Virus record (IMG/VR): IMGVR_UViG_3300045988_147287
DNA length: 23,538 bases
Reading direction: 5' to 3' (one strand)
DNA from: a virus
Taxonomy: Duplodnaviria > Heunggongvirae > Uroviricota > Caudoviricetes
In this document: piece by piece, positions 7,461 through 7,854 of the stretch
Position numbering within the stretch: position 1 is the first letter of the stretch
Layout: every line of letters starts with the position of its first letter
Notes under the pieces: model-generated
What the model saw: the letters and a program-made list of their open reading frames with translations, nothing else
What the model was told of the DNA's origin: nothing
Database searches by the model: none
Translations under genes and position numbers: made by a program

Positions 7461-7611
7461 CACGCTGGACAATACGGATGTTAGCAATGCCCGCATAGGG
7501 TGCATGATTTTGCATGCATAGATGTTGCCAGTTCTGGCCGTGCGCCGCCAGGACGGGCTTGGCTGAAAAGCGGTATTGCACCTGCATTAAAACCGCCCCA
7601 TGAAGCGGGCG

Positions 7612-7630
7612 GGCGAGGCGGGGAAAGCAC
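7612..7630 (+). other. cos site: 19-nt P2-type cohesive-end sequence GGCGAGGCGGGGAAAGCAC
   Basis: Exact 19-mer matching the P2 cohesive-end sequence as I recall it, embedded in a GC-rich noncoding block (about 7500-7640) with flanking small palindromes, located between the replication module and the Q/P packaging genes. Confidence 0.6.
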
Positions 7631-7854
7631 TGCGCGCTCCATTAACGACCATTACATAATACTATTAGCCTATGAATCGAGTCATGAGATGTTATCTTTA
7701 CGATTCAGGCGAGTGCTTTCGTTACGATGAGTTGGTTTAAGCACACTATCTGCACAAAAAATAATCTGTTGAAGCGATTCATCATTCCTAACTCTCTAGA
7801 GTCTTAAATAAAAATATGTAAAATGCGTAAAATTTTTTGAATTATGGATCAGCT

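Follow-up and report, generated by a model that had tools for sequence, protein, structure and literature searches.

The stretch of DNA described here (IMG/VR record IMGVR_UViG_3300045988_147287; 23,538 nucleotides (nt), hereafter the window) is part of a P2-type prophage of Escherichia coli, apparently intact and about 33 kb in size, and our subject is its cos site, the packaging signal, which has cargo genes on both sides. The map order was confirmed: cos, with its cohesive-end sequence at 7612-7630, lies between the replication gene A (3838-6165) and the portal gene Q (9725-10753) (Table 1). One cargo gene is located on the A side of cos and two on the Q side, and an intergenic stretch of 376 nt separates the left cargo gene from the right ones. 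The observation is real, and we are highly confident in the confirmed assignment of the site to the P2 type of cos; the arrangement around it is largely known.

Over 6400-9800, the window matches a chromosome with 100% identity, namely that of E. coli O112ab:H8 strain Res13-Lact-EA06-22 (NZ_CP062910.1). The prophage in this chromosome extends to ogr, adjoining yegQ, and bears no pseudogene flags; all P2 late genes, A to ogr, are annotated as intact. The cargo is compositionally foreign to the phage backbone, with 38% GC in the left cargo gene and 37% in the right cargo genes versus 53-56% in the backbone. An earlier reading of the sequence alone (the original prediction) had placed the cohesive ends in a GC-rich noncoding block; this holds for 7500-7638, which has 60% GC (66% in its core) and lies between the 38% GC gene and a spacer (7639-7836) of 33% GC.

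The cohesive-end sequence lies within a complete cos module

The sequence GGCGAGGCGGGGAAAGCAC occurs at 7612-7630 as a single exact copy on the + strand, and the window contains no further copy with up to 3 mismatches on either strand (chance expectation 0.02). The P2 record NC_001895 has the same sequence at its features cosL (1-19) and cosR (33575-33593), so the P2 cohesive-end sequence given in the original prediction was right. Variants of this 19-mer, which conform to the consensus GGCG(A/T)GGCGGGGA(A/T)AGCA(C/T), are present in 150 of 160 related loci, and the window has the exact P2 variant. In P2, once excision and replication have taken place, cos on the circular phage DNA is recognised by the terminase gpM/gpP. 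By homology, terminase would nick the top strand of the window sequence at 7611/7612 and the bottom strand, 19 nt away, at 7630/7631, leaving 19-nt 5' overhangs; one genome would then be packaged with 5' cohesive ends GGCGAGGCGGGGAAAGCAC. A left virion end at 7612, as had been proposed, would agree with the P2 map convention.

We aligned the region with the circularised ends of P2, 186, and P4 and also, using the 19-mer as the anchor, with about 150 related loci. The core and an upstream palindrome are conserved in all of the phages, which answers the alignment check that had been suggested for P2 and 186. The conserved parts of the module are the palindrome, a GC-rich spacer, and the core, and all but a few of their bases lie left of the overhang. 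It had also been suggested that conserved terminase recognition elements be sought in the flanking ~100 bp: conserved elements are indeed found in the left flank, and they may take part in terminase recognition.

The palindrome TGCATG-ATTTTG-CATGCA is located at 7501-7518, where it had been described. P2, 186, P4, and related loci all have the motif GGTGCATGnnTTTGCATGC at the same position, ~110 nt to the left of the cut, and this is therefore not a chance palindrome. Its parts GGTGCAT and TTGCAT are invariant across the window, P2, 186, and P4. The left side of the cut has 4.6 copies of TGCAT/ATGCA per 140 nt and the right side 0.09 per 120 nt, with 2.5 per kb in the whole window. The TGCAT repeats may thus be sites recognised and bound by terminase.

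The core follows the pattern TGCAnnTGCATTAAAACCGnCCC-N5-GCGGGC(A/G), then the 19-mer, then TGCGCGC, and is nearly invariant in P2, 186, P4, and the 33 loci with a long gap between cos and Q described below. It is the only intergenic part of the window matched by P2 in an identity search (98%), and corresponds to the '55-bp core' that passages of PMC5694545, PMC9594776, and PMC2231350 credit to Ziermann & Calendar 1990. Between palindrome and core, the spacer 7519-7582 is GC-rich with a CGCCAG..CTGGCG-like arrangement. It resembles that of 186 and P4, whereas P2 has an unrelated, AT-rich sequence in its place; mosaicism within Peduovirus thus extends to the left flank of cos.

Other structures in this block were considered and set aside. 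An inverted repeat left of the cut, CCGCCCC-N5-GCGGGCGG, was flagged by a scan as terminator-like on the - strand. Across loci its right arm is fixed and its left arm varies without compensating changes, so it is read as conserved nick-adjacent sequence and not as the stem of a hairpin. The only open reading frame (ORF) across the block, of 76 aa with a GTG start (7500-7730), has no family match and reads through cos, and is thus probably spurious. A search of 6000-9900 for non-coding RNA or a retron msr/msd gave no Rfam match with E up to 1.

Taken with P2 (NC_001895) as well as 186 and P4, the likeness is close: the 19-mer is the same, the position is between A and Q, and the palindrome GGTGCATG..TTTGCATGC is conserved ~110 nt to the left. 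The terminase is 99% identical to that of P2. With 244 of 247 gpM residues and 589 of 590 gpP residues identical to their P2 counterparts, the prophage that carries this cos also encodes what, from sequence, would be its cognate terminase. The difference lies on the right. The P2 19-mer is separated from Q by a spacer of 167 nt that contains the terminator tQ, while the window interposes 2094 nt of foreign DNA with two genes.

Table 1. Coordinates of the cos module, the cargo islands, and other features of the window.
Feature	Coordinates	Strand	Remarks
Integrase gene	32-1027	-	followed by early genes
Replication gene A (gpA)	3838-6165	+	conserved left border of the variable region; Pfam Phage_GPA, E 9e-123; 'replication endonuclease' in source annotation
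Left cargo island (site L)	6166-7499 (about)		counterpart of P2 tin-old region; low GC
Left cargo gene	6525-7460	+	311 aa, uncharacterised; predicted PIN-domain nuclease fold
TGCAT-repeat palindrome GGTGCATGATTTTGCATGCA	7499-7518	+	~110 nt left of cut; putative terminase recognition element
Complete cos module (packaging signal)	7500-7638	+	139 bp; homology to 186, P4, partly P2
Conserved cos core	7583-7638	+	55/56 bp; TGCATTAAAACCGCCCC..GCGGGCG, 19-mer, TGCGCGC; 98% identity to P2
Cohesive-end sequence	7612-7630	+	19 nt; exact match to P2 cosL/cosR
Right cargo island (site R)	7639-9742		from cos+8 to last Q codons; low GC; two genes
Right cargo gene 1	7846-8937 (alternative start 7837)	+	363 aa; DUF8426
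Right cargo gene 2	8940-9629	+	229 aa; partner of gene 1
Hairpin CGCCGTC-TGGA-GACGGCG	9697-9714		just past Q stop codon; position of P2 tQ
Portal gene Q	9725-10753	-	conserved right border; Pfam Phage_portal
Terminase large subunit gene P	10753-12525	-	Pfam Terminase_6N, Terminase_6C, Terminase_5; late operon beyond
Terminase small/endonuclease subunit gene M	14689-15432	+

Phage homology ends seven to eight nucleotides past the cohesive end

To survey the gap between cos and Q, we collected loci encoding a relative of the window Q and recorded how far the 19-mer lies from the Q stop codon. Where this gap is long (33 loci: the window and 32 related ones), per-column conservation is 90-100% through TGCGCGC and drops to background (30-40%) at the base directly after it. 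Homology to the window stops at 7635-7639 in 139 of 141 related loci. Identity with P2 likewise stops at 7638 and restarts at 9743, P2 reading on with GACGGTGG and the window with CCATTAAC, and P4 diverges from the window at the same offset past the 19-mer as P2. The sequence is thus unconstrained beyond 7-8 nt past the overhang.

The recognition signal would be asymmetric in this case. Palindrome, spacer, and the left part of the core all lie left of the cut, and to its right only the 19-mer and TGCGCGC would be constrained. Because the signal elements are on the left, foreign DNA could begin 8 nt past the overhang and leave packaging unharmed. With foreign DNA tolerated from that point, the A-Q region holds two separate insertion sites, namely site L between A and cos, which is the classical tin-old region, and site R between cos+8 and the end of Q. 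Both are filled here, site L with the single PIN-fold gene and site R with the DUF8426 gene and its partner.

At its other end, the right island reaches into the portal gene. gpQ is identical to that of P2 at 336 of 342 residues and its C-terminal differences all fall within the last 8 residues (…RFKDYSLESN versus …RFKNYSLDTDND in P2). Since these last ~8 codons are changed, the junction (about 9742) falls within the 3' end of Q, an essential gene. The island substitutes for P2 nt 28 to about 215, including tQ, which is annotated in P2 at 160-181. The hairpin at the equivalent position of the window was read from the sequence and has no T-run on either strand; it may be a terminator.

The two cargo islands are distributed independently and share the cos module

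The islands were found to occur separately. Over 6101-7638, the window has 99.7% identity to the prophages of E. coli M10 and 'P2SIDE7' (OU784746), both of which have a short cos-Q gap. Conversely, over 7500-9900 it has 98.6-99.1% identity to those of strains EF7-18-58 and ET881, which have reverse-transcriptase cargo and no annotated cargo, respectively, left of cos. Of 5426 complete E. coli genomes, 4 contain the left island and 7 the right one; the source genome is the only one with both (1 of 5426). All seven copies of the right island adjoin a portal gene; it is absent from 50,697 records of isolated phages. In EF7-18-58, the genes left of cos are an HTH gene and a reverse-transcriptase gene, a retron-like pair (locus L166, 2658-3894).

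The only stretch common to left-island and right-island carriers is the 139-bp module at 7500-7638, which makes cos the shared junction of cargo exchange. The module would have served as the shared homology at which the two islands were joined, and recombination within it or at its edges probably combined them. The cargo around cos amounts to 1446 + 2094 = 3540 nt, where P2 has 3255 + 167 = 3422 nt, and the genome thus remains close to that of P2 in length. The near-constant total fits a capsid size limit.

We put the probability that 7500-7638 is the functional cos site of this prophage at about 0.9. Several points weigh against it. The intactness of the prophage is judged from annotation and from high identity to P2, not from function, and the need for 7500-7582 rests on conservation together with a report on cosmid transduction (PMC9594776), which describes an increase of about 10^4-fold with longer cos flanks. 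Replacement of the P2 cos-Q spacer, tQ included, may affect termination of the P-Q operon. Finally, the two other right-island carriers compared above are degraded prophages with a truncated portal gene, so the right island has yet to be seen in a proven viable phage.

These last carriers could also be taken to mean that cos is a relic, the prophage being cryptic, its 19-mer kept by recent descent, and the islands products of decay or insertion in a dead element. We consider this very unlikely. The late genes of both EF7-18-58 and ET881 (the latter at locus L167), P2-like prophages, are rearranged in addition to the portal truncation, and the absence of the right island from isolated phage records would accord with a dead element. 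However, all P2 late genes in the source genome are annotated as intact, gpM, gpP, and gpQ are 98-99% identical to P2 without any frameshift, and the genome is close to P2 in size. Moreover, conservation covers the entire 139-bp module and not just the 19-mer.

The interval between cos and Q as a hotspot for cargo genes

Cos had been described as lying between two cargo islands rather than immediately next to Q. Foreign genes do flank it on both sides, with 2094 nt to Q versus 167 nt in P2, and the arrangement proved unusual only among close relatives. Among IMG/VR loci with a ~98% identical Q, the cos-Q gap exceeds 500 nt in 3 of 79, one of which is this prophage; among P2-like prophages sampled at one genome per species, it does so in 30 of 74 (more than 1000 nt in 24 of those). 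Relatives differ greatly in the length of this gap. In isolated Peduovirus records that open at cos, Q lies ~180-200 nt in, and no long cos-Q gap was seen among them.

PADLOC models were matched by 8 of the 10 largest ORFs in the cos-Q gaps of other species: LmuB (E 6e-164), OloA (9e-101), Avs5 (3e-61), NsnA, AbiLi, PDC-M03A, PDC-S49, and PDC-S12. Together with the gap counts, these matches indicate that the cos-Q site is a regular defence hotspot of the family that is seldom used in the E. coli P2 lineage. The loci in question (L019, L018, L041, L083, L154, L067, and L079) belong to other Enterobacterales species and encode proteins matching Lamassu LmuB, Olokun OloA, NsnA/DUF262, AbiLi, Avs5, PDC-M03A, and PDC-S49, the last two being PADLOC defence-candidate families. 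The genes at site R of related prophages occur in either orientation.

Hotspots of this kind have been published. In passages of PMC5694545, the cos-Q position is proposed as a hotspot, with Dodd & Egan 1996 and Nakayama 1999 cited for it; the retrons Ec67/Ec86 are said there, after Dodd & Egan 1996, to replace the DNA between cos and the terminator tW in 186-related prophages, and Ralstonia phage RSY1 to have extra ORFs between cosL and its Q homolog. The Ec67/Ec86 insertions, as described in that source, are like the right island in that foreign genes replace the DNA from the cos core to the portal end, at the same site; they differ in cargo, retrons there and DUF8426 with its partner here. 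Set beside them, the segment replaced in the window takes in the terminator and the last Q codons.

The gpA-gpQ hotspot as a whole, adjacent to cos, was reported by Rousset 2022 (PMC9122126), named the 'TO region' by Odegrip 2006, and handled as a single hotspot in a 2026 NAR survey (PMC13586616). In the parts of these studies that bear on it, the hotspot consists of variable low-GC genes between A and Q, by cos, as in the window; the A-to-Q content is pooled there and not split by cos side, whereas the window has two sharp-edged sites. The window is a case of this hotspot, having variable content by cos, foreign GC, and a cargo pair catalogued before. Cargo on both sides of cos is locally rare, yet it is a published kind of hotspot. 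No new mechanism emerges: the cos site, both insertion sites, and the concept of a defence hotspot are already in print. What is new is a small addition: the split into two exactly bordered sites, whose contents are distributed independently, and the correspondence between the site on the Q side and the hotspot of P4.

In the psu-int hotspot of P4 (Rousset 2022), gop, beta, and cII start directly after the 19-mer and CGCGCGC, which matches site R in both its offset and its side of cos. P4 differs in having cargo on the Q-equivalent side only, because psu abuts its left flank, while the window has cargo on both sides. Since site R coincides with the P4 hotspot position, the shared cos core could be a route for cargo between helper and satellite, restricted to the Q side. 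A search for a P4-borne copy of the window cargo found none; more distant homologs are located in a primase-bearing E. coli island and in Serratia, and not beside a P4 cos.

These comparisons suggest a broader, tentative reading, which we regard as possible though short of probable. The gpA-gpQ hotspot would consist of two independent insertion sites split by a portable 139-bp cos module that acts as a recombination anchor; the Q-side site would start exactly 8 nt past the cohesive end, at the P4 hotspot position, the cos core may let helper and satellite trade defence cargo on the Q side only, and the cargo modules may be anti-phage systems.

The hotspot might instead be made by cos itself, if cohesive ends cut by terminase or injected into the cell are recombinogenic and the breaks draw cargo to both sides, with tolerated insertions and flanking homology only secondary causes. 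An exchange promoted by cohesive ends is put forward as speculation in a passage of Rousset et al. (PMC9122126). The cos module meets an island precisely at each of its ends, 7500 and 7638, and P4 and P2 each have a hotspot at cos though they share only the cos core. The junctions, however, are at the outer edges of the module and not at the nick sites, and the 19-mer and core are intact in every locus. Homologous exchange with cos as the anchor, combined with selection for packaging, explains the junctions at least as well. We therefore hold breaks at cos to be a rather unlikely origin of the hotspot, and treat the idea as a refinement of the best explanation, in which cos is the anchor, rather than as an alternative to it.

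For annotation, the predicted virion ends and the packaging module of the prophage are placed, and the cos-proximal variable region becomes readable as two sites bordered by the left edge of the cos module and by cos+8. Such borders help the automatic delimiting of cargo in P2-like prophages and P4-like satellites, and they frame the question of helper-satellite cargo exchange via the shared core. For the design of P2/P4 cosmids, the payload could begin 8 nt past the overhang, and ~110-130 nt of left flank would be worth keeping.

Order of DNA entry

The original prediction had gone on to propose that the right operon (7837-9629) would be the first DNA to enter the cell and the 6525-7460 gene the last, and that this placement may matter for early expression of defence cargo. 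Neither proposal found support. Developed into an explanation of the locus, the idea would be that entry order is adaptive: the left virion end, with 7846-9629, enters first, and the cargo is expressed early and aids or protects the incoming phage. The right island does begin 8 nt from the left cohesive end, and its genes (7846-9629, + strand) are transcribed in the direction leading away from it. If terminase stayed on the conserved left flank, which forms the right genome end, and packaged this end first, as an analogy with lambda cosB would have it, the Q-side end would be the last in and the first out. The asymmetry of cos supports either direction, depending on whether lambda cosB or cosQ is taken as the analogue, and the last-in-first-out rule is itself contested for lambda in a passage of PMC10287942.

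For P2, our literature search found no paper stating which end enters first. Chattoraj & Inman 1974 reportedly found a specific P2 end attached to the tail. Stepwise entry of the T5 or T7 type is not known for P2, and P2 DNA circularises through its cohesive ends after entry, both of which speak against a role for entry order. A scan of the + strand at 7639-7836 detected no strong sigma-70 promoter for the right island, and the genes at site R of related prophages face both ways. Close relatives are mostly empty at site R, so no general entry-order logic is evident. Defence by a prophage would take effect chiefly in the lysogen; cos is internal there, and the order of entry has no bearing. An adaptive entry order is, in our judgment, highly improbable.

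Cargo proteins and neighbouring genes

The label 'defence cargo' is plausible but unproven for the genes around cos; the hints are a PDC-S02 match, a predicted PIN fold, and a possible PUA/YTH-like domain. No PDB relatives of the left or right cargo were detected at the sequence level. The left cargo gene product (WP_033548893) is predicted to have a PIN-domain nuclease fold interrupted by a large helical insertion. An 81% identical homolog is located immediately left of cos in Salmonella prophages, and a 56% identical one in Vibrio amid small cassette-like genes.

Right cargo gene 1 matches the PADLOC model PDC-S02 (E 2.5e-12) and the family PF28530/DUF8426, and is a candidate defence protein. 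In its AF2 model (pLDDT 83), the N-terminal half weakly resembles modified-base readers of the PUA/YTH type: the best Foldseek matches, themselves weak, were to the modification-dependent endonuclease VcaM4I (E 2.7e-3) and to YTH domains. Right cargo gene 2 has no family match above threshold. It is a constant partner of gene 1, the two always occurring together, also in islands unrelated to P2; a gene of 217-229 aa lies 3' of the DUF8426 gene at the end of the primase-bearing E. coli island and in a Serratia locus adjoining icd. The right pair (WP_024234794 + WP_024234795) is catalogued as 'hypothetical + hypothetical' in Table S5A of PMC9122126, and the left gene WP_033548893 was not found among the entries listed of that table.

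Between A and the left cargo gene, the 360 nt at 6166-6524 contain only unannotated ORFs without family matches, the largest being 109 aa (6140-6469, - strand). P2 carries orf91 (DUF3850/ASCH) at this place, and one other E. coli genome matches the segment 6170-6442 at 91% identity. A third cargo gene of the same prophage, encoding a P-loop ATPase of the Sll1717 family, lies outside the window (NZ_CP062910.1, locus L169, 20610-22064), where it occupies the Z/fun position between the tail-fibre assembly gene and the tail-sheath gene.

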